Origin: an uncultured Dehalococcoidaceae bacterium
GTDB lineage: Bacteria; Chloroflexota; Dehalococcoidia; Dehalococcoidales; RBG-16-60-22
Direction of reading: 5' to 3'
NCBI GenBank assembly: GCA_964595455.1
Contig: CAZQQL010000003.1
Span: 211-64,210, forward strand
DNA length: 64,000 bases
Positions 4,519 through 18,899 of this stretch are shown in pieces. The translations under genes were made by a program, and so were the position numbers. Numbering within the stretch: position 1 is the first letter of the stretch; each line of letters opens with the position of its first letter. The notes below the pieces were generated by a model. That model made no database searches and was not told where the DNA came from. It saw only the letters and a list, made by a program, of their open reading frames with translations.

Positions 4519-4892
4519 GAATCTGTCTCTCCTGATTTCTTTGTGTTCGATACTTCGTCAATTCTGAATTGGGTTATCTTCTCGATAAGCTCGTATGGAA
4601 TGGGCTTGTCCAGGGGGAACTGGACGGCCCCCTTGGACGTCTGAAAAGAAGACAGTTCCGCTTGAAAAGCCGTTATGCCGGACGGGTCCGGGTAAAACCC
4701 TATATGGTGCGGAAAAGCTGCGAAATGTACCAGGTTCTTGCCCTTAGCCTTGAAGGTCGGCATGCCGTAGCTGATGGTCTCGGCAGCTCCGGGCGCCGTC
4801 TGCTTGATGACCGCGCGCACTTTCTCGAGGATGCCTCTCACATCCTCCGGCTGCTGTGCGATGTATTCATCGATGGTTGTAAAATCTATCAT
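4515..4892 (-). CDS. DUF1801 (YdhG-like) domain protein
   Basis: 125 aa. The blocks ISYGMPTFKAKGKNLVHFAAFPHHIGFYP are typical of the family. ATGA overlap with the esterase gene. Confidence 0.7.
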   Translation of the reverse strand: MIDFTTIDEYIAQQPEDVRGILEKVRAVIKQTAPGAAETISYGMPTFKAKGKNLVHFAAFPHHIGFYPDPSGITAFQAELSSFQTSKGAVQFPLDKPIPYELIEKITQFRIDEVSNTKKSGETDS

Positions 4893-4907
4893 TAGACCAT
4901 TCGTAAC

Positions 4908-6419
4908 TTAAAAGAGGGTAAGAGCTAACTGCTCTTTATTTTTTAAACGCTCGGCCGCATAGTGCACATACTGTTCCGTAAGGTTTAATTCTTTGCTTAG
5001 TTCATGTAGACTAAGTCTCTTCAGTAAGTCTAAAGTAATTGGACGTTTGTCTGACCAAAATATCATCGATTCATAATACTCACGAGCAGGTTCTGAGTTA
5101 AGTAAGTCTGCGACAAATTCAGCCTCTTCAACGGAATTACAGGGGATAAAGTACACTGTATCGTCAACAAAAACTGGTTTATTCTCGAAGGGTTCAATTA
5201 CCTTAAAACCGAGCTTCTTATAAAACCCTGAAATCGCTACCTTCCAAGGAGCAAATGAGTATGGACCAACACCGAAAATCGAGTATTTCGGTTTATTTTT
5301 GTATATTGAACTTGAGCGTTTACTAAAGGCTTCTTTATGAGCTTCAAGATAGTTCCAAGTTGCCTGAGCATTATTCTTGATTCTTTCAGTATCTTGTCCA
5401 ATATATTCCTGGGTCACTATCACGAATTTACTACCGTACCGAGGTTTACCGTTGCTAATATCCGAGCTTTTTAATAGAGGATAAAGATAGGTTTCTTCAA
5501 GGGAAACCACTTCATTCAGAGTGTTTTTGTATTCGTTTCCCATACGCTCGAGTTCCATTATTTTCGAGCAGTCATGCTTAATGCCAGATCGCCATTGATA
5601 GACGTTATTCGGGTTAAATAAGTGTTGCCATTTGGTGTATTTAGTGTTGTCTGAGATCAGTAAGCCGTTCTTGCAGGTAATGATACTAATTGGGTTTATG
5701 GAATCCAAACTAGTATATACGTTACATTCATATGACGTGATATTTGGCTGAAAGTGAGTAATAAAGAAGCAAGCTTCTACTGACACGTCGAAATACCGTT
5801 TTGCGTCAAATAGGTAGATGTTGGATCCACTCAATGAGATTCCGTTTTTATGGGCATATAACAATACCTTTTTTGCGACTGAAAACTTGCAGAGTATTGC
5901 TATGGCTCCACGTTTATTTTTCATCCAATCCAGATATTTGATTAGCATCCACTCTGAAATGTCAAAATTACTTTTACCAGTAATGGCGTCATAACCTTTT
6001 TGTTTTTGAAAATTGCTTTTCTGCGGTAGATTATTGCTTTGTATCGTTCCTAGATTAGAACTCGTCACCCACGGTGGGTTTCCCGTGATCAATACGGGTT
6101 CTTCGATGTCGTTTATGATCCCCGCCCAGTCTAGTTCAAAAAAGTTCCCTTGCATTAGTTCAGTTCTTTGCTCTAAACTCATTTGATTGATTGAAGATTG
6201 TAATGCAACTAGATACTGGGTAGAAATATCCATTCCAAGTAAATGAGCTTCCGGGAACAAAGCGGCTGCTGCGAGTAGAAATGAGCCTTTACCACAAGTG
6301 GGTTCAATTATACAAGCAGGTCTGAAATTGGTTGCCTCTAAGACACTCAAAGCGGTGGTCGCTAACTTATAAGGGGTTTGAAAATCCCCATACTCTTTGT
6401 GTTTGTATTTGTTTTTCAC
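4908..6419 (-). CDS. N6-adenine DNA methyltransferase, gamma-class (TaqI/Eco57I-like) with C-terminal target-recognition region
   Basis: 503 aa. Motif order is GDFQTP (motif X), EPTCGKGSF (motif I, SAM binding), NPPW (motif IV). Strongly AT-rich codon usage compared with the neighbours. Confidence 0.85.
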   Translation of the reverse strand: MKNKYKHKEYGDFQTPYKLATTALSVLEATNFRPACIIEPTCGKGSFLLAAAALFPEAHLLGMDISTQYLVALQSSINQMSLEQRTELMQGNFFELDWAGIINDIEEPVLITGNPPWVTSSNLGTIQSNNLPQKSNFQKQKGYDAITGKSNFDISEWMLIKYLDWMKNKRGAIAILCKFSVAKKVLLYAHKNGISLSGSNIYLFDAKRYFDVSVEACFFITHFQPNITSYECNVYTSLDSINPISIITCKNGLLISDNTKYTKWQHLFNPNNVYQWRSGIKHDCSKIMELERMGNEYKNTLNEVVSLEETYLYPLLKSSDISNGKPRYGSKFVIVTQEYIGQDTERIKNNAQATWNYLEAHKEAFSKRSSSIYKNKPKYSIFGVGPYSFAPWKVAISGFYKKLGFKVIEPFENKPVFVDDTVYFIPCNSVEEAEFVADLLNSEPAREYYESMIFWSDKRPITLDLLKRLSLHELSKELNLTEQYVHYAAERLKNKEQLALTLF

Positions 6420-6423
6420 AGGA

Positions 6424-7122
6424 CTAATTCACTCTGACAATACCTTTGGTAGTATCAGCAAGTTTTATGACCCTACTATATTGTAGCCTCCATTGGAGTG
6501 CATTGGAGATGGTCAGGTAACCTAATTCAGGCGGCTCTATAATAAGTTCTTCTGCAATAGCTTGTCGCTCTATCTCATCACAGGGCAATAGTCTGTCTTC
6601 CATAAATGCCATCAGATCTTCAGAAGTTCCTTCATTCTGTAGAATTTGTAAGATGCCTGTTGTCGTCTGAAAATCAGCCGTTTTTTCCTTTTCAACGAAG
6701 ATCGTGTGCAGAATATTCAAGCAACCGGTTTGTTGAGTATGGTCATCGGATTTTTCATAAACAAATAATAAGAGCGAATAGCCTAAGCCGAATATCTTTT
6801 GTCTTGCGGATTTGAATGGGCAAGATGATTGAGGTTGTTTCATACTGGTGACCTTGATATCCACTTCAATATGAGGGATGTCAATTCCAAGCGCTGAATT
6901 CCCCGGTGGAAAATTGTATTTCTCCAATAGGTGAGCGGTGAATTTGTGCTCAAGGTATGTCCCAACAGCTTTACCATCTGTAACTCCATACAAAGCAGGT
7001 TCATTGTGGGTACTTTCTTTGATAGAGAATGCTTTGGCCTCTTTAAATAGGTTGGCTAAATCTAGAGTTTTCTTTTTCACTATAACACACACCGTCTTCA
7101 AATGATGCCTGCATTCTAACAC
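6424..7122 (-). CDS. Putative PD-(D/E)xK restriction endonuclease partner of the methyltransferase
   Basis: 232 aa, ending 4 nt upstream of the methyltransferase start, with the same AT-rich composition. Candidate catalytic block GIDIPHIEVDIKV (D...E/DxK). The start codon is uncertain. Function is inferred from context plus this motif. Confidence 0.55.
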   Translation of the reverse strand: MLECRHHLKTVCVIVKKKTLDLANLFKEAKAFSIKESTHNEPALYGVTDGKAVGTYLEHKFTAHLLEKYNFPPGNSALGIDIPHIEVDIKVTSMKQPQSSCPFKSARQKIFGLGYSLLLFVYEKSDDHTQQTGCLNILHTIFVEKEKTADFQTTTGILQILQNEGTSEDLMAFMEDRLLPCDEIERQAIAEELIIEPPELGYLTISNALQWRLQYSRVIKLADTTKGIVRVN

Positions 7123-12120: not shown

Positions 12121-13416
12121 CTACGGTTGCATCACCCGCCCGAGGAACAGTATCGTTCCCGTGGGGATGTCCCGGATGAGGAAGATGAACGGGCGGTCGA
12201 CGGTCATGACGGGAGGGTCCATGGCGGCGCTCATCTCCATGATGGCAGCGGTTGCCGCGGCAGCCTCGGTGCCTTTTTCATCCACCGTTACGAACGATTT
12301 GTGCACGACGGCTGATAACCAGAGCTTATCGGCTTCGGTGATGCCGGAGAAGTCCGCCTGCCCGGTGAAAGCGAGCGGCATGCCGAGGTCAGCCAGGGCA
12401 TCATTCAGGTTGAACTCGGACTCGAACTCGTATTTCGGAAATGAGAGTTCCACCTTTTGACGCTCCAGGCCGGCGATGATATCGTTCAGCATGGCCGTAT
12501 CCAGACTGTCCTCGATGTCCTTGAAAGTTCCTTCCGAGGGAAGAAGAACGACCATCGAGGTCTGGCTGCCCCGGTAGAGCATCTCGATCGCCTGGTAGCC
12601 GTCGCCTTCTTTGTAACCGAAGCTGTTGGTCTGATGCATCATGTCGACGGTGACAGTAGACCCATCGATGAGCGTGAAATCAGCCGGGGCGGTATTGCCT
12701 TCCCAGAAGTCCCAGTACCACGCGGCGTTGAAGTAGATGGCGTTAGTCAGGACCAGCCGGGTCATGGGATCGATAGCGCCGGCCGGGATAAGGTCGTTGA
12801 TGCGGTCTTCCGTCTGTGCCGAAATGTAGTCATTGATGGTCAGGCGGGCTTTCTCCGGCTCGTTGATGTAGTCCAGTTCCCGCAGACCGGCGCCGTAATT
12901 TTGCTCCAGGGTATCCAGATAGTCACGGACGTACTTGTAGTCTTCCTGTCCCCAGACATCGTTGACGACATGCAGCTTGAACATTTCATCTGGTTCCAGG
13001 TGTCCGCTCGGTTCCGACCGTGACGCCAGTTGTTCCTGGAGCCAGTGGAAAGACGGGTGGAGGTACAGTTCCGGCAGGTCGAAGCTCAGGGCGTTCCGTA
13101 TCTCCGATTCGGTGGCGCCGTTGGCTCCGGCGTAGACCATGGCCATGACGGCGGAAATACTGTACGGTGAATAGAAGAAGTTGCCGTCCTCATCCTTGAG
13201 AAGACGGTAAAGGTCGAAGGCGAAATCCGTGTTGCCTTCCGCCAGGAGGGCACGCTGTTCTTCGAGGGTGAGGTTGACCGGGGTGGTCGTGGGCGTCGTT
13301 GTCGCCGTTGTCGCCGTTGCCGACGGGCTCGCGGTCGTCGTCGCCTGCGGACCGCAGCCCGCGAACAGGACCGCGATGACCAATATACCCAGCAGCGCCG
13401 GTACCATCTTTTTCAT
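12121..13416 (-). CDS. Serpin (lipoprotein-anchored serine protease inhibitor), copy 1
   Basis: 431 aa. Lipobox LFAGC, Thr/Pro linker, FYSPYSISAVMAMVYAGA, hinge/RCL GTEAAAATAAIMEMSAAMDPPV, and VDRPFIFLIRD. Confidence 0.9.
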   Translation of the reverse strand: MKKMVPALLGILVIAVLFAGCGPQATTTASPSATATTATTTPTTTPVNLTLEEQRALLAEGNTDFAFDLYRLLKDEDGNFFYSPYSISAVMAMVYAGANGATESEIRNALSFDLPELYLHPSFHWLQEQLASRSEPSGHLEPDEMFKLHVVNDVWGQEDYKYVRDYLDTLEQNYGAGLRELDYINEPEKARLTINDYISAQTEDRINDLIPAGAIDPMTRLVLTNAIYFNAAWYWDFWEGNTAPADFTLIDGSTVTVDMMHQTNSFGYKEGDGYQAIEMLYRGSQTSMVVLLPSEGTFKDIEDSLDTAMLNDIIAGLERQKVELSFPKYEFESEFNLNDALADLGMPLAFTGQADFSGITEADKLWLSAVVHKSFVTVDEKGTEAAAATAAIMEMSAAMDPPVMTVDRPFIFLIRDIPTGTILFLGRVMQP

Positions 13417-13470: not shown

Positions 13471-14745
13471 CTAGGGCGCCAGTACCCGCCCGAGGAAAAG
13501 GACCGTGCCCGTGGGAATGTCCCGGATAAGGAAAATGAACGGGCGGTCGACGGTCATTTCAGCCGGTTCGAGGGCGGCCCCCTTGGCCATGATCACCGCG
13601 GAAGCCGCGGCGGCTTCGGTGCCTTTCTCATCCACGGCGATGAACGTCTTGTGGAAAACGTCCGAGATGAACAGGCTGTCTCCGGTGGTAATGCCGGAGA
13701 AATCGGCATTGCCGAATGCGTCTGTCATGCCGAGGGCTTTCAGCGGTTCATTCATGCTGTAATTGGATTCAAAGGAAAAACGGGGGAACCTGAGGACGAC
13801 CTGCTCGGACCTCAGATTTTCCAGGGCATCGGCCAGCAGGGCGGTATCCAGGCTGCTTTCAAAATCCGTAAACCCGCCTTCATCCGGCAGCAGCACAATC
13901 ATCGATGTGTTCATGCCCCGGTAGACCATTTCCAGCGCCTGGTAGCCGTCTCCGTCATAGTAACCAAACGTGTTTGACTGCAGCATCATGTCCACGGTGC
14001 CGGTACCGCCGTCGAGCAGGTGGAAGTCAGCCGGAGCGGTGTTGTTCTCCGGGAAATCGAACAACCAATTGGCATTAAAGTAGATAGCGTTGGTCAGCAC
14101 GAGTGCGGTCATTGGTGTGATGGCGCCCTGCGGGATGAGGTCGTTGATGCGGTCTTCCGTCTGGTCGGAGATGTAGTCATTGATGGTAAGGCGGGACTCC
14201 TCGGGGTGCTGGACGAAGTCCAACTCCCGCAGGCCGGCGCCGTAGTACTGTTCCAGCGTTTCAAGGTATTGCGCCAGGTAGGGATAGTCTTCCTGCCCCC
14301 AGATATCGTTCACGATGTGAAGACGGAAAAGGGCTTCCGGCTCTTCGGCGTTGGGGTTTGCCGGGCGGGAAGCCAGTTCTTCCCGGAGCCATCCGAACGC
14401 TGAGTGCAGGTCTGTCTGCGCCAGGTTAAAGCTCAGCGCTTCCGCCATCTGGGATTCGGTTGTCCCCCGCGCCCCGGCGTATGCCATCGCCAGCGCCGAG
14501 GAAAGGCTGTACGGGGAGAGGAAGAGATTGCCTTCCTCATCCTTGAGCTGCCGGTAAAGGTCGAAGGCGAAATCCGTATTCCCTTCAACCAGTGCGGCAT
14601 GCATTTCAGACGGGTTGGTCGTGGTAGCGGCCGGGGTCGTCGGCGTGGTGGTTGCCGTCGTTGTGGTTGTTGGAGTTGTCTGCGGACCACAGCCTGCCAG
14701 TACGATCAAGCCGGTAAGAGTTAAAGCTGCAAGTATCTTCTTCAT
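13471..14745 (-). CDS. Serpin (lipoprotein-anchored), copy 2, tandem paralog
   Basis: 424 aa. Lipobox VLAGC, Thr/Pro linker, hinge/RCL GTEAAAASAVIMAKGAALEPAE, and VDRPFIFLIRD. Confidence 0.9.
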   Translation of the reverse strand: MKKILAALTLTGLIVLAGCGPQTTPTTTTTATTTPTTPAATTTNPSEMHAALVEGNTDFAFDLYRQLKDEEGNLFLSPYSLSSALAMAYAGARGTTESQMAEALSFNLAQTDLHSAFGWLREELASRPANPNAEEPEALFRLHIVNDIWGQEDYPYLAQYLETLEQYYGAGLRELDFVQHPEESRLTINDYISDQTEDRINDLIPQGAITPMTALVLTNAIYFNANWLFDFPENNTAPADFHLLDGGTGTVDMMLQSNTFGYYDGDGYQALEMVYRGMNTSMIVLLPDEGGFTDFESSLDTALLADALENLRSEQVVLRFPRFSFESNYSMNEPLKALGMTDAFGNADFSGITTGDSLFISDVFHKTFIAVDEKGTEAAAASAVIMAKGAALEPAEMTVDRPFIFLIRDIPTGTVLFLGRVLAP

Positions 14746-15821: not shown

Positions 15822-15931
15822 GTTGTCCCCCCGTGTTGATGTCTTCTTGCCTTGTATAACGGAGGGGGAAAAGAAAAGTTAGCCGGAAGTGCTGGTAATT
15901 ACCTAAAAATCTTGTTATATTAGTGAACAAT

Positions 15932-16663
15932 ATGAGAATTATCATCATCGCCGATATCCACGGCAACCTGGCCGCGCTGCAGGCGGTGCTGGAAGACGCC
16001 CGGGCGCACGGCGGCATCGATATGCTCTGGTGCCTCGGGGACATCGTGGGGTACGGGCCGGAGCCGGGCGGATGTATCGAGATCGTGAGGTCATTGAGCA
16101 ACGTCGTCATCGCCGGCAACCATGACCGCGGGGCCGTCGGCAAACTGGATACGGCCTACTTCAACCCGGCCGCAGCGGATGCCCTGCAATGGACGGCCGG
16201 GCAGTTGACGCCGGCCCAGAAGGACTACCTGGCGCGGCTGCCGCTGACGCTGGAGTACGAGCAGTTCCTCCTCGTCCACGGCAGTCCTGCCGACCCGCTG
16301 CTGGAGTACCTGATTTCCGCTGGCATCGCGGAAAAGAACTTCGATCTCTACGCCTTCAAATTCTGCCTGGTGGGCCACTCCCATATCCCAGTGGCGTTTC
16401 GCAACGACGATGGAGGTGTCAAGCCCATCGGTCTCCAGCCGGGCGTGGGACTGGTTTTAGCTGAGAAACGGATGATCATCAATCCGGGGTCGGTCGGTCA
16501 GCCGCGTGACGGCGACTTCCGGGCTGCCTACGGGGTCTATGATACCGACGCCGGCATGTTCCGCCTCCAAAGGGTGGAGTACGACATCAAGGCCACGCAG
16601 GACGGGATCATGGCGGCGGGACTGCCGGTCAGGCTGGCGACGCGGCTAAATTCCGGTTACTAG
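15932..16663 (+). CDS. Metallophosphoesterase (YfcE/MJ0936-like calcineurin-fold)
   Basis: Blocks MRIIIIADIHGN, CLGDIVGYGP, GNHD and GHSH. The start is taken at ATG 15932. Confidence 0.85.
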   Translation: MRIIIIADIHGNLAALQAVLEDARAHGGIDMLWCLGDIVGYGPEPGGCIEIVRSLSNVVIAGNHDRGAVGKLDTAYFNPAAADALQWTAGQLTPAQKDYLARLPLTLEYEQFLLVHGSPADPLLEYLISAGIAEKNFDLYAFKFCLVGHSHIPVAFRNDDGGVKPIGLQPGVGLVLAEKRMIINPGSVGQPRDGDFRAAYGVYDTDAGMFRLQRVEYDIKATQDGIMAAGLPVRLATRLNSGY

Positions 16664-16680
16664 ACTTTGTGCCCCCATCT

Positions 16681-17520
16681 TCAAGGTTTTTGGTCATCCT
16701 CTAGTAGGTCCAGCCCAATATCGGCATGCCCAGTTTTCGGTTCGACGATGACTGATTCTCTCTCTATGCGAGGTCTCGACATGAAACCAGTTACGGCAAC
16801 TATATTTTCTATGGGTCTGCGTAGCCTTCTTACAAGAGAACTAACGGTATCAAAGTCTTGCGTATCTATGGCTTCAACGAGTCTAGTGTAAGTTCGCCTA
16901 AGTTCTTGTACTGATAAAGGGCTAATCTCGTTTGTTATATGCTCATTCCGTCTGGTAGTACTAAGTCTCGTAAGGGATAGAATCTCTTCTATTAACTCTC
17001 TTTCAGTTCTTAAGGCACCATCTGGCCGCTCTCGTCCTTTTTTTAAGATAGTACCGATGGCATTTTCAAGTTTTGGCCACCACATTTCATATACTTCAGT
17101 CAGTACCGTATCATCAAGTTTTTGTTCCGCGCAAGCCGCATTGATCGTCTTTATCAGTTTATAAAAATCCTCTTTATTGAAGCAGGTTGCTTGGAATTGG
17201 ACTAAAGGACCAACTAGATCAGTGTTCTCTAACCCAAATAAAACCGGGCATATTCTGGCTTTTTCCAATTGTTTGGATAACGCTCCAGATTCGAACAATA
17301 TCCATGGACTAGACAAATTTTCTCTTGTTAAAATAATTATTCCAACTTGAGATTCCTGTAATTCTCTTGATATCTCACTTGCCCATCTTGTACCTTTTTC
17401 AACATCATCTGGAGTAAAGTATGGTTTTACGTTTTGAAGAACCCCCGGAATCCATTTTTTTACAACTTCACCAAGTTCTTTACTGAGAGTCCCGGACCAA
17501 CTAATAAAAATCTTGATCAT
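16681..17520 (-). CDS. TIR/TIR-like domain protein with an uncharacterised helical C-terminal region
   Basis: N-terminal region KIFISWSGTLSKELGEVVKKWIPGVLQNVKPYFTPDDVEKGTRWASEISRELQESQVGIIILTRENLSSPWILFESGAL. AT-rich islet. The start is taken at MIKIF (17520). The family call is from motif recognition only. Confidence 0.6.
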   Translation of the reverse strand: MIKIFISWSGTLSKELGEVVKKWIPGVLQNVKPYFTPDDVEKGTRWASEISRELQESQVGIIILTRENLSSPWILFESGALSKQLEKARICPVLFGLENTDLVGPLVQFQATCFNKEDFYKLIKTINAACAEQKLDDTVLTEVYEMWWPKLENAIGTILKKGRERPDGALRTERELIEEILSLTRLSTTRRNEHITNEISPLSVQELRRTYTRLVEAIDTQDFDTVSSLVRRLRRPIENIVAVTGFMSRPRIERESVIVEPKTGHADIGLDLLEDDQKP

Positions 17521-17692
17521 GATTACTTTTCCCCAATCGATTAACAAATTAGTCTAAAACAAATTCGGTATGTTTGTCAATAATTGTTAATAATTCACTT
17601 TAACCATAAACCTCGAATTTTACAGCCTTTAGTCCCATATCGAGAATGCTCTGTTCTTGACAAACCCCATACTACCCTATACGCTTAAGTAT

Positions 17693-17962
17693 GAGGTCGT
17701 GCTAGACGGGGAGTTAGCGGTGCCCTGTACCTGAAACCCGCTATAGCAGGGTCGAATTCCCGCTTGAGGCTCTCATCTGGTAGGACTGCTAACGGTAAGC
17801 AGCGTTGAAGGCTGGGTCCTGCGCGGCGGAACGCCGTGAACCCCGTCAGGTCTGAGAGGAAGCAGCGGTAAACGGATAATTCCGGGTGCCGCAGGGTTGC
17901 CTGGCTGGAGCCGGCTGCCGGAGGCAAGCTGGTTGGTGGTGTCGAGAGTGGGTGCACGGCCT
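17693..17962 (+). ncRNA. ffs: Signal recognition particle RNA, long (Bacillus-type, with Alu domain)
   Basis: Domain IV motif GTCAGGTCTGAGAGGAAGCAGC at 17845-17866. The 5' block GTGCTAGACGGGGAGTTAGCGGTGCCCTGTACCTGAAACCCGCTATAGCAGGGTCGAAT and the 3' block GTGCCGCAGGGTTGCCTGG closely parallel the B. subtilis scRNA as I recall it. The 5' end GAGGTCGTGC pairs with the 3' end GCACGGCCTC. Confidence 0.9.
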
Positions 17963-17972
17963 CTTTATTGAA

Positions 17973-18899
17973 ATGGATAACAGCCCGGAAGGCGTCCCTA
18001 CTTCCCTCCTCACACAAACGAAGAAGCTGCTCCGCCGGTTCGGCCTGCGACCCCGGAAAGGCCTGGGCCAGCATTTCCTCATCGATGCCGATGTCCTGAA
18101 CGGCATCGTCGCCGCGGCTGACCTGAAAAAGTCCGATACGGTCATCGAGGTCGGTCCCGGCCTCGGCATCATGACGGATGAACTGGCGGCCCGCGCCGGC
18201 TGGGTCATCGCCATCGAACTGGATACCAACCTGGCTACCATGCTCCAGACCTCCCTCACCCATGATAACGTCGTCATCCTCAACGGGGACATCCTGGGCA
18301 TGGAACCGGGCAGGCTTTTCGAATCGCACGCGGCGCAAATACCGCTGAACATGGCTTCCTACAAGGTCGTGGCCAACCTGCCGTACTACATCACCTCGCC
18401 GGTGCTGCGGCACTTCCTGGAAGCCTCGACACGTCCTGATGTCATGGTCGTTATGATCCAGAAGGAAGTTGCGGAAACGGTCTGCGCCGGGTCGGGCAAA
18501 CGGACGCTGCTCAGTATCGCCGTCCAGGTCTACGGGAAACCGGAGATCATCATGACGGTACCGCCGCAAGCGTTCTTCCCGGCGCCGGACGTAGCTTCGG
18601 CGGTGGTGAGGATAGAAGTGTATCGCGAACCGGCGGTGGATATCGGGGACGGCGAGGCGTTTTTCCGGCTCGTGAGGGCGGGCTTTTCCGCGCCGCGCAA
18701 ACAGCTTCTCAATTCGCTGTCCAGCGGCCTGTCCTTTACCCGGGAACAGACCGCAGCGCTGCTGAAGGCAGCAAACATCAACCCGACCCGCCGTGCCGGC
18801 GCCCTGGAACTGGAAGAATGGGCTCAACTGTTGAAAATACTGAACGATAAGGAAATGGACTGGCTCTATGCTGACGCTCAAAGCCCCCGCCAAGATTAA
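17973..18899 (+). CDS. rsmA: 16S rRNA (adenine1518/1519-N6) dimethyltransferase
   Basis: Block GQHFLID and the SAM motif VIEVGPGLG. The start is taken at MDNSPEG (17973), just after the SRP RNA. The track start at 17886 lies inside ffs. Confidence 0.92.
   Translation: MDNSPEGVPTSLLTQTKKLLRRFGLRPRKGLGQHFLIDADVLNGIVAAADLKKSDTVIEVGPGLGIMTDELAARAGWVIAIELDTNLATMLQTSLTHDNVVILNGDILGMEPGRLFESHAAQIPLNMASYKVVANLPYYITSPVLRHFLEASTRPDVMVVMIQKEVAETVCAGSGKRTLLSIAVQVYGKPEIIMTVPPQAFFPAPDVASAVVRIEVYREPAVDIGDGEAFFRLVRAGFSAPRKQLLNSLSSGLSFTREQTAALLKAANINPTRRAGALELEEWAQLLKILNDKEMDWLYADAQSPRQD

Follow-up and report, generated by a model that had tools for sequence, protein, structure and literature searches.

The window analysed here is a 64,000-nucleotide stretch from an uncultured Dehalococcoidaceae bacterium (contig CAZQQL010000003.1), and our subject is a solitary gene for a TIR-domain protein that lies in it between a metallophosphoesterase (Metallophos) gene and ffs, the gene for the signal recognition particle (SRP) RNA. 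The gene occupies an AT-rich islet at 16664-17690, with a GC content of 0.390 compared with 0.579 +/- 0.042 in the other 1-kb windows of the stretch (z = -4.5); GC drops from about 0.60 to 0.35-0.44 between 16650 and 17700. From the list of open reading frames (ORFs), a single credible candidate was found in the islet, on the minus strand at 16681-17520, which starts with ATG and encodes 279 amino acids (aa); an alternative TTG start nine codons upstream would yield a product of 288 aa. The Metallophos gene converges on the TIR gene, with stop codons 17 bp apart, and on the other side follow the SRP RNA gene, ksgA (RrnaAD) and ispE. An original prediction, made from the sequence alone, had described this islet with its single 279-aa gene and had stated that no ThsA, STING, Argonaute or cyclase gene adjoins it; both descriptions hold, and the flanks are housekeeping genes. 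The features of the locus are these:

15923 to 16663, plus strand: metallophosphoesterase gene, left flank of the hotspot described below (Pfam Metallophos_2, E 1.7e-19)
16681 to 17520, minus strand: coding sequence of the solitary TIR protein, 279 aa, stop codon at 16681-16683 (ORF list, Pfam TIR_2, PADLOC PDLC03016, PHROG 13899)
16684 to 16770, minus strand: variable, acidic tail predicted to be disordered, residues 251-279 (predicted local distance difference test score, pLDDT, <50 for 252-275)
16771 to 17115, minus strand: predicted family-specific helical C-terminal domain, residues 136-250 (AlphaFold2, AF2, and alignment invariants)
17116 to 17520, minus strand: predicted TIR domain, residues 1 to about 135 (AF2 pLDDT here mostly >88; Foldseek matches in the PDB)
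17290 to 17292, minus strand: codon (GAA) of Glu77, the putative catalytic Glu, in the motif W73-x-x-F76-E77-x-G79 (read from the sequence)
17551 to 17580, minus strand: predicted sigma70-like promoter of the TIR gene itself, TTGACA-18 nt-TAGACT, followed by a ribosome binding site (RBS) (consensus scan, 10/12 matches)
17657 to 17685, plus strand: predicted ffs promoter, TTGACA-17 nt-TACGCT, the right border of the islet (read from the sequence)
17697 to 17959, plus strand: SRP RNA gene (ffs, large bacterial type), right flank of the hotspot (Rfam RF01854, 191.7 bits, E 4.7e-32)

An independent Logan contig (2,272 nt, from a wastewater metagenome) covers the Metallophos gene, the TIR gene and ffs, with the same depth in the islet as in its flanks (about 10x). 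Because the depth is uniform on this contig, we regard the junctions of the islet as real and not as an assembly chimera. Plus-strand ORFs of 57 and 41 aa within the TIR gene, and a 74-aa ORF at 16667-16891, were treated as antisense shadows.

We assign the protein to the TIR superfamily on the basis of a curated-profile match and of a predicted fold that can be superposed on solved TIR domains. Pfam called TIR_2 at 37.1 bits (cutoff 28; E 5.2e-9) and TIR at 27.6 bits (cutoff 21.3), over residues 4-108. The AF2 model, based on 56 homologues, reached a mean pLDDT of 83.5 and shows a TIR core of five strands alternating with helices; the secondary structure elements (E, strand; H, helix) are E2-7, H11-27, E31-35, H45-56, E59-64, H72-82, E89-94 and H116-129. 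A Foldseek search of the PDB yielded 22 matches at E <= 1e-3, nearly all of them TIR domains. The PDB matches included SPARTA TIR-APAZ (E 2.1e-5), plant NLR TIRs, SpbK (9phb) and AbTir (8g83), and the alignments were confined to about the first 160 residues. Against viral structures we found only weak matches with long root-mean-square deviations, to giant-virus TIR and deoxyribosyltransferase proteins.

The putative catalytic residue, Glu77, is invariant in 56/56 members of the family and in alignments falls on the catalytic Glu of WCLDEL, the motif of the plant TIRs 3jrn, 5h3c and 7xoz. It is a conserved Glu at the start of the helix that follows the third strand, the position that marks the enzymatic branch of TIR domains, and it is one of 38 invariant positions in the 56-sequence alignment, which also include W73, F76 and G79. 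The motifs quoted in the original prediction (KIFISWSG, GTRWASEI and GIIILTRENLSSPWILFESGAL) are all present in the translation, and its reading of the N-terminal part as a TIR domain, with the Glu of FESG where a catalytic residue would be expected, agrees with the profile, model and alignment results.

The C-terminal half had been described as helical and free of any recognisable motif, and our searches bear this out. The AF2 model places a long helix at residues 137-164, carrying the invariant W147 and W148, and further helices at 173-196, 201-219 and 223-244. A second conserved patch, made up of R171, R174, E178, E179, L181 and R185, is tied to helix 173-196 after the TIR domain. Past about residue 195 the aligned family is highly variable, and the tail (residues 251-279) cannot be aligned across it; from residue 196 on, dN/dS (the ratio of nonsynonymous to synonymous substitution rates) is 0.29, compared with 0.07 in the TIR domain, so that this part evolves about four times faster. 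Pfam searches at E <= 10 with five C-terminal halves returned noise and no family match, and NCBIfam likewise returned only noise. With the C-terminal half as query, phmmer matched only TIR proteins of the same architecture or fragments of them among 1.84 billion representative proteins, and a single-sequence AF2 model of residues 137-279, at pLDDT 54.6, was too poor to justify a fold search.

The family to which the protein belongs is represented in existing collections. The PADLOC profile PDLC03016, 'TIR-TM' (TM, transmembrane), matches residues 2-189 (E 7.5e-75) and no longer matches past about residue 190, and PHROG 13899 matches at E 1.3e-72. At E <= 1e-3 we counted at least 1,566 clusters of homologues (90% identity), whose members nearly all have a length of 265-300 aa and whose very diverse sources include bacteria, archaea and phages; a hydrophobic segment was found in 0/120 of the best homologues. 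When phage genomes were searched by tblastn, homologues came up in AC1, which is P2-like, and in mEp390, which is lambdoid. Through the AC1 match and the PADLOC models we recognised a three-gene system, in which gp04 (PADLOC 2TM-TIR) and gp03 (PADLOC 1TM-TIR) are followed by gp02 (TIR-TM, E 2.7e-118), and the window protein is 45% identical to gp02 over residues 1-158. We take this system to be the one named Rst_2TM_1TM_TIR in DefenseFinder. Rousset et al. (2022) cloned the AC1 three-gene locus, which protects E. coli C against lambda, LF82_P8 and P2, and suggested that its TM proteins respond to a messenger made by the TIR protein (PMC9122126).

Searches of all six-frame ORFs of the window for homologues of AC1 gp03 and gp04 (phmmer --max) gave nothing below E 1, and the islet is too small to hold a second gene such as a 1TM-TIR or 2TM-TIR partner. 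Judged by sequence similarity, the window protein is a homologue of one component of the validated 2TM-1TM-TIR system, and the system itself is absent here. The same type of search found no gp03 or gp04 homologue at 89 other loci, comprising the syntenic relatives, mEp390 and 80 metagenomic loci. The solitary form is the norm of the family, being present at 89/89 of the loci that we examined outside P2-AC1.

The neighbourhoods of these solitary homologues offer little sign of a dedicated partner. Around the 80 metagenomic loci, 267 neighbouring ORFs fell into 236 clusters, and this dispersion argues that there is no conserved partner. The recurrent neighbours were subunits of type I restriction-modification (R-M) systems, together with integrases and transposases. 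Apart from these R-M and mobile-element genes, the sole recurrent neighbour was a protein of about 290-300 aa with weak likeness to Nuc_deoxyrib_tr/TIR, found within three genes of the TIR gene in 4/80 loci (L109, L119, L143 and L157; Pfam E 4.7e-5 in L143, and an example at 5049-5954 of L119). In two loci the TIR gene lies within a type I R-M operon. That of L105 (4456-11791) holds a TIR protein of this family and another, unrelated to it, of the CAP12/Pycsar type, in the order hsdM, this-family TIR, hsdS, CAP12-type TIR, hsdR; that of L134 (3331-7983) has a YhcG/DUF1016 nuclease and a this-family TIR between hsdM and hsdS, in that order. The mEp390 homologue, gp47, is likewise solitary and full-length (272 aa, 40% identity to the window protein over residues 1-163, PADLOC TIR-TM E 1.6e-57). 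It differs from the window gene in being phage-borne, enterobacterial and uncharacterised, and it forms a moron with its own terminators between the Q antiterminator gene and the holin genes. The Q-holin and hsdM-hsdS slots are typical positions of stand-alone defence or exclusion genes. Across hosts, the GC content of the gene regresses toward about 0.40, lying below that of its flanks in GC-rich hosts and above it in AT-rich ones, as expected for a horizontally circulating gene.

These surveys bear on the possibility that the protein is a signal-generating TIR like ThsB, which would sense infection and make a messenger derived from ADP-ribose (ADPR) for an unlinked effector. A mechanism of this kind is what was proposed for AC1 gp02, whose effectors would be the TM proteins (PMC9122126); Thoeris TIRs have the same catalytic Glu, and a second TIR-like or Nuc_deoxyrib_tr-like protein is nearby in the 4/80 loci mentioned above, with the CAP12-type TIR of L105 two genes off. 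Against it stands the lack of a conserved partner over 89 loci in very different hosts. Moreover, a gene transferred horizontally on its own, as indicated by its GC of about 0.40 whatever the host and by the lone moron, could not rely on an unlinked effector in each new host. We consider signalling of the ThsB type unlikely, though it is the alternative we take most seriously.

To learn how the site is occupied elsewhere, we used the Metallophos protein as a synteny anchor in 80 related genomes (GTDB representatives). The gap between the Metallophos gene and ffs was found in several states:

Empty gap of 54-138 bp with the ffs promoter only: L018, L023, L024, L028, L035
AT-rich type II R-M pair (35% compared with 48% GC): L014
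AT-rich Nudix gene like the PADLOC candidate PDC-S07: L012, with a remnant and a J-domain ORF in L011
AT-rich TM proteins: L031, L020
MmgE/PrpD gene with the GC of the host: L022, L025, L029

The sole content of the gap in the empty-site genomes is a TTGACA-N17-TAGCAT promoter, with which the ffs promoter of the window aligns. The original prediction had asked whether the site is empty in relatives; it is in these five, and other genomes hold other cargo. The junction behaves as a long-lived cargo hotspot in Dehalococcoidaceae. The TIR gene was found in 0/80 of the GTDB representatives, which include sister lineages with the other site states, and where the gene is present its G+C content at third codon positions (GC3) is 0.24-0.32.

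Several of the other occupants deserve a brief description. The Nudix gene of L012 (5779-6147) is AT-rich and encodes 122 aa (Pfam NUDIX E 2.3e-15, PADLOC PDC-S07 E 5.5e-9), and in its sister genome L011 (5736-6340) a Nudix remnant has a 112-aa J-domain-like ORF next to it; such genes may represent small defence cargo that has yet to be characterised. The genes at L031 5747-6934 (395 aa) and L020 4527-5162 (211 aa) encode membrane proteins without a Pfam or PADLOC match and are also AT-rich. The closest relative, L010 (Metallophos 90% identical), is uninformative on the filling of the site, as synteny ends at the Metallophos stop codon; the hotspot is therefore also a rearrangement breakpoint. 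In L010 (5741-7062), genes for an encapsulin-like 263-aa protein and a ferritin/rubrerythrin-like 121-aa protein, annotated by eye, replace the TIR gene and ffs. Within the window, the only other stretch as AT-rich as the TIR islet is at about 4700-7000 (GC about 0.38-0.41 compared with 0.58), where an islet at 4908-7122 on the minus strand adjoins the RsfS gene. It encodes a type II R-M pair. The methyltransferase has 503 aa and an NPPW motif (PADLOC MTase_II E 1.2e-167), and the restriction enzyme has 232 aa (REase_II E 4e-96). Since this second islet is an R-M pair, the AT-rich islets of this genome appear to be defence genes.

The TIR gene has relatives at the same site in other lineages. 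Its closest homologues, P0003, P0001, P0004 and P0006 (58-63% identical), are in the same place and converge on a Metallophos gene, and in L001 the far side of the TIR gene holds the SRP RNA gene and ksgA, as in the window. TIR identity tracks Metallophos identity in 6/6 pairs, as follows:

L001 and L170: TIR 75.8%, Metallophos 73.3%
L170 and L171: TIR 66.4%, Metallophos 62.1%
L001 and L171: TIR 66.3%, Metallophos 61.7%
Window and L001: TIR 62.7%, Metallophos 56.6%
Window and L170: TIR 59.8%, Metallophos 59.3%
Window and L171: TIR 58.1%, Metallophos 53.7%

In the least-diverged pair, synonymous divergence (dS) is 1.24 for TIR and 1.15 for Metallophos, and dN/dS is 0.125 and 0.169, respectively; the TIR gene is under strong purifying selection, as strong as that on its neighbour. 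A TTGACA-N17-TAGAAT promoter and an AAGGAG RBS are kept at the equivalent position in L001, L170, L171 and L174. In the TIR tree, the syntenic P0001, P0003, P0004 and P0006 cluster together, with the non-syntenic P0012 and P0016 elsewhere; resolution is poor, and the window copy branches separately near the base. In the Metallophos tree (neighbour-joining, one protein, weakly resolved), TIR-bearing lineages are scattered within Dehalococcoidaceae among lineages with an R-M, Nudix, TM or empty site. The simplest reading is that the gene was present ancestrally and was repeatedly lost or replaced at the hotspot.

The original prediction had taken the islet for an insertion, and several observations would suit a recent one, with the shared position reflecting independent captures at a hotspot: the composition is AT-rich, relatives carry different cargo at the site, lineages with the TIR gene lie among those with other site states on the Metallophos tree, and P0012 and P0016 are as similar to the window protein as the syntenic homologues (58-63%) yet have unrelated contexts. 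What speaks against recency is the co-divergence with the core neighbour in every pair, the near-equal dS in the closest pair, the promoter and RBS retained in position, and the clustering of the syntenic proteins on the TIR tree. Nor did we find an integrase at the islet or a tRNA or tmRNA gene in the 64-kb window, and in a repeat search no pair bracketed the islet, all repeats being short, chance-level matches. The evidence is against a recent insertion, which we consider quite improbable, and it favours a gene common to at least five Dehalococcoidaceae lineages and long inherited vertically at this site; in this respect the earlier account needs to be revised.

Selection of this strength also bears on whether the gene is a non-functional remnant, left after the TM genes of a 2TM-1TM-TIR system were lost. 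The only characterised relative does have three genes, but the ORF is intact, the 38 invariant residues with the catalytic Glu are in place, a dN/dS of 0.125 already contradicts decay, and the solitary form is the rule elsewhere. We give the remnant explanation hardly any weight.

A further alternative is that the gene has been domesticated for a role other than defence, such as stress-induced turnover of NAD+ or nucleotides or the control of dormancy, and is kept for the physiology of the host. Its presence at one locus in at least five lineages, its divergence in step with a core neighbour, its conserved promoter and the purifying selection on it are all compatible with such a role. Yet the gene is missing from 80/80 of the GTDB representative relatives, whose sister sites are empty or hold R-M, Nudix or TM genes; members of the family occur here and there in many phyla, in phages and in R-M operons; and the composition is still foreign. 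Domestication therefore seems to us improbable.

The composition of the gene stands out in view of this long history. Its GC3 lies between 0.24 and 0.32 in every lineage, compared with 0.55-0.82 in neighbouring genes, and four-fold degenerate sites have reached saturation when the window copy is compared with the others (8/40 and 11/38 identical). Amelioration of the TIR gene has not happened. Either the AT-richness is kept by selection, perhaps because it limits the expression of a toxic enzyme, or repeated replacement from an AT-rich pool has mimicked co-divergence.

We believe that these results are best accommodated by a stand-alone TIR immune protein, resident in the Metallophos-ffs hotspot, inherited vertically, representing the commonest form of the AC1-TIR family and cleaving NAD+ autonomously; we would give this reading a probability of roughly 55%. 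SARM1, AbTir, SPARTA and SpbK are TIR NADases that are switched on by oligomerisation, with composite active sites around a conserved Glu. By analogy, the window protein would be synthesised in small amounts under the control of the gene's own promoter and would be inactive until phage infection, when the fast-evolving C-terminal helical domain might recognise a phage product or relieve autoinhibition. The TIR domains would then self-associate into composite active sites in which Glu77 would cleave NAD+. Because no effector gene is linked, the depletion of NAD+ would itself be the likely output, by way of growth arrest or abortive infection, with the helical domain acting as sensor, autoinhibitor or oligomerisation element. 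The invariant Glu, the lack of a linked effector and the roughly fourfold faster evolution of the C-terminal tail make an autonomous, infection-triggered NADase working by abortive infection the most likely mechanism. There is precedent in SpbK: when the non-TIR region of this single TIR protein binds the portal protein of a phage, its NADase is activated, and it kills by NAD+ depletion (PMC11984713). The original prediction of a solitary TIR defence candidate was right in substance, being plausible from homology and context. It did not recognise that relatives are known, in the form of the AC1 TIR component whose two TM partners are missing here, or that the gene has long resided in a hotspot, and the function we propose is suggested by homology.

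Several points weigh against this interpretation. AC1 gp02 is the only member of the family to have been tested, and it was cloned together with two TM proteins; if it signals to them as proposed, it may not act as an autonomous effector (PMC9122126). TIRs that deplete NAD+ cannot be told by a conserved Glu from those that produce a signal. The C-terminal domain has no structural or sequence analogue, which makes the sensor role a guess, and to be inherited vertically for so long at a single site of the chromosome is less typical of a defence gene and would fit a domesticated host function too. RNA sequencing runs yielded only conserved pieces of SRP RNA from other organisms and are neutral on transcription of the TIR gene.

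More tentatively, and with greater doubt, we raise the idea that the 279-aa protein is a complete minimal immune module, uniting sensor, switch and NADase, and that it is the core from which the AC1 system arose by addition of TM proteins. Its AT-rich codons (GC3 about 0.3, compared with 0.7-0.8 in host genes) might on this proposal have been selected to curb expression of a toxic enzyme, and selection of that kind would explain why amelioration has not taken place despite a dS >1.

Some annotations near the locus are also worth recording. The mechanically called ksgA ORF (17886-18899) begins at a GTG within the SRP RNA gene, and its true start is likely the in-frame ATG at 17973, 14 nt past the end of the SRP RNA; with this start, ffs, ksgA and ispE follow closely on one another and share a strand. 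The 402-aa ORF that runs antisense at 17685-18893 on the minus strand is a GC-rich shadow ORF. On the left, two tandem serpin paralogues lie on the minus strand at 12121-13416 and 13471-14745 (Pfam Serpin E 2e-110 and 6e-114), both of which carry a signal peptide like that of lipoproteins and a linker rich in Thr and Pro. After the serpins comes a lipoprotein of 267 aa that is internally duplicated and matches no Pfam family; its gene is kept upstream of Metallophos in L010.

If the solitary protein does act alone, a widespread single-gene form of TIR defence is probably left uncounted by rules of the DefenseFinder and PADLOC type, as current detection rules were built around the three-gene set, the only tested form of the family, and the role assigned to the TM partners would need rethinking. 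The Metallophos-ffs junction is a probable defence hotspot flanked by core genes in Dehalococcoidaceae, a group whose phage defences have been little studied. A co-diverging gene with a GC3 of about 0.3 in a host with a GC3 of 0.7-0.8 also provides a clean case in which to ask whether selection or recent arrival keeps defence genes AT-rich.

We compared the protein with other known TIR systems. The best structural matches to its TIR domain are from SPARTA TIR-APAZ (8qlp, 8spo and 8i87; E 2e-5 to 1e-4, about 158 aligned columns), whose TIR is an NADase activated by oligomerisation; identity, however, is 15-19%, the C-terminal half is a predicted helical bundle in place of an APAZ domain, and no Argonaute gene is nearby. 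With Thoeris ThsB and the CBASS/Pycsar effectors (CAP12, PycTIR) it shares the TIR fold, the catalytic Glu and an anti-phage context. It differs from Thoeris in that no ThsA (SIR2/SLOG or Macro-TM) adjoins the TIR gene, a statement that applies to the flanks, as the search with ThsA-specific profiles did not extend to the remainder of the window; it differs from CBASS/Pycsar in that the flanks hold no cyclase and there is no SAVED or STING module, and Pfam CAP12-PCTIR_TIR (PF10137) scored 12.8 bits, below its cutoff of 24.7.

SpbK of the Bacillus subtilis element ICEBs1 is a single-gene abortive infection system that works alone, its non-TIR region binding the portal protein YonE and triggering NAD+ degradation (PMC11984713). 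Its TIR filament structure (9phb) matches the window TIR at a Foldseek E of 1.3e-3. Homology beyond the generic TIR fold was not detectable, however; the TIR of SpbK is C-terminal, which reverses the order of domains, and the sensor domains are unrelated. The SpbK-like proteins form a functional class and not a sequence family, and for the window gene it is the solitary arrangement alone that is established. The closest comparison is with AC1 gp02, which has the same N-terminal TIR domain, WW helix, RxxR..EE..L..R motif and helical C-terminus, and which differs in being preceded by two small TM proteins and tested only as part of that three-gene unit; the window gene has neither TM partner. 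The family was already known as the TIR component of the AC1 system; the interest here lies in a possibly overlooked single-gene form, its hotspot in Dehalococcoidaceae and a composition that does not ameliorate.

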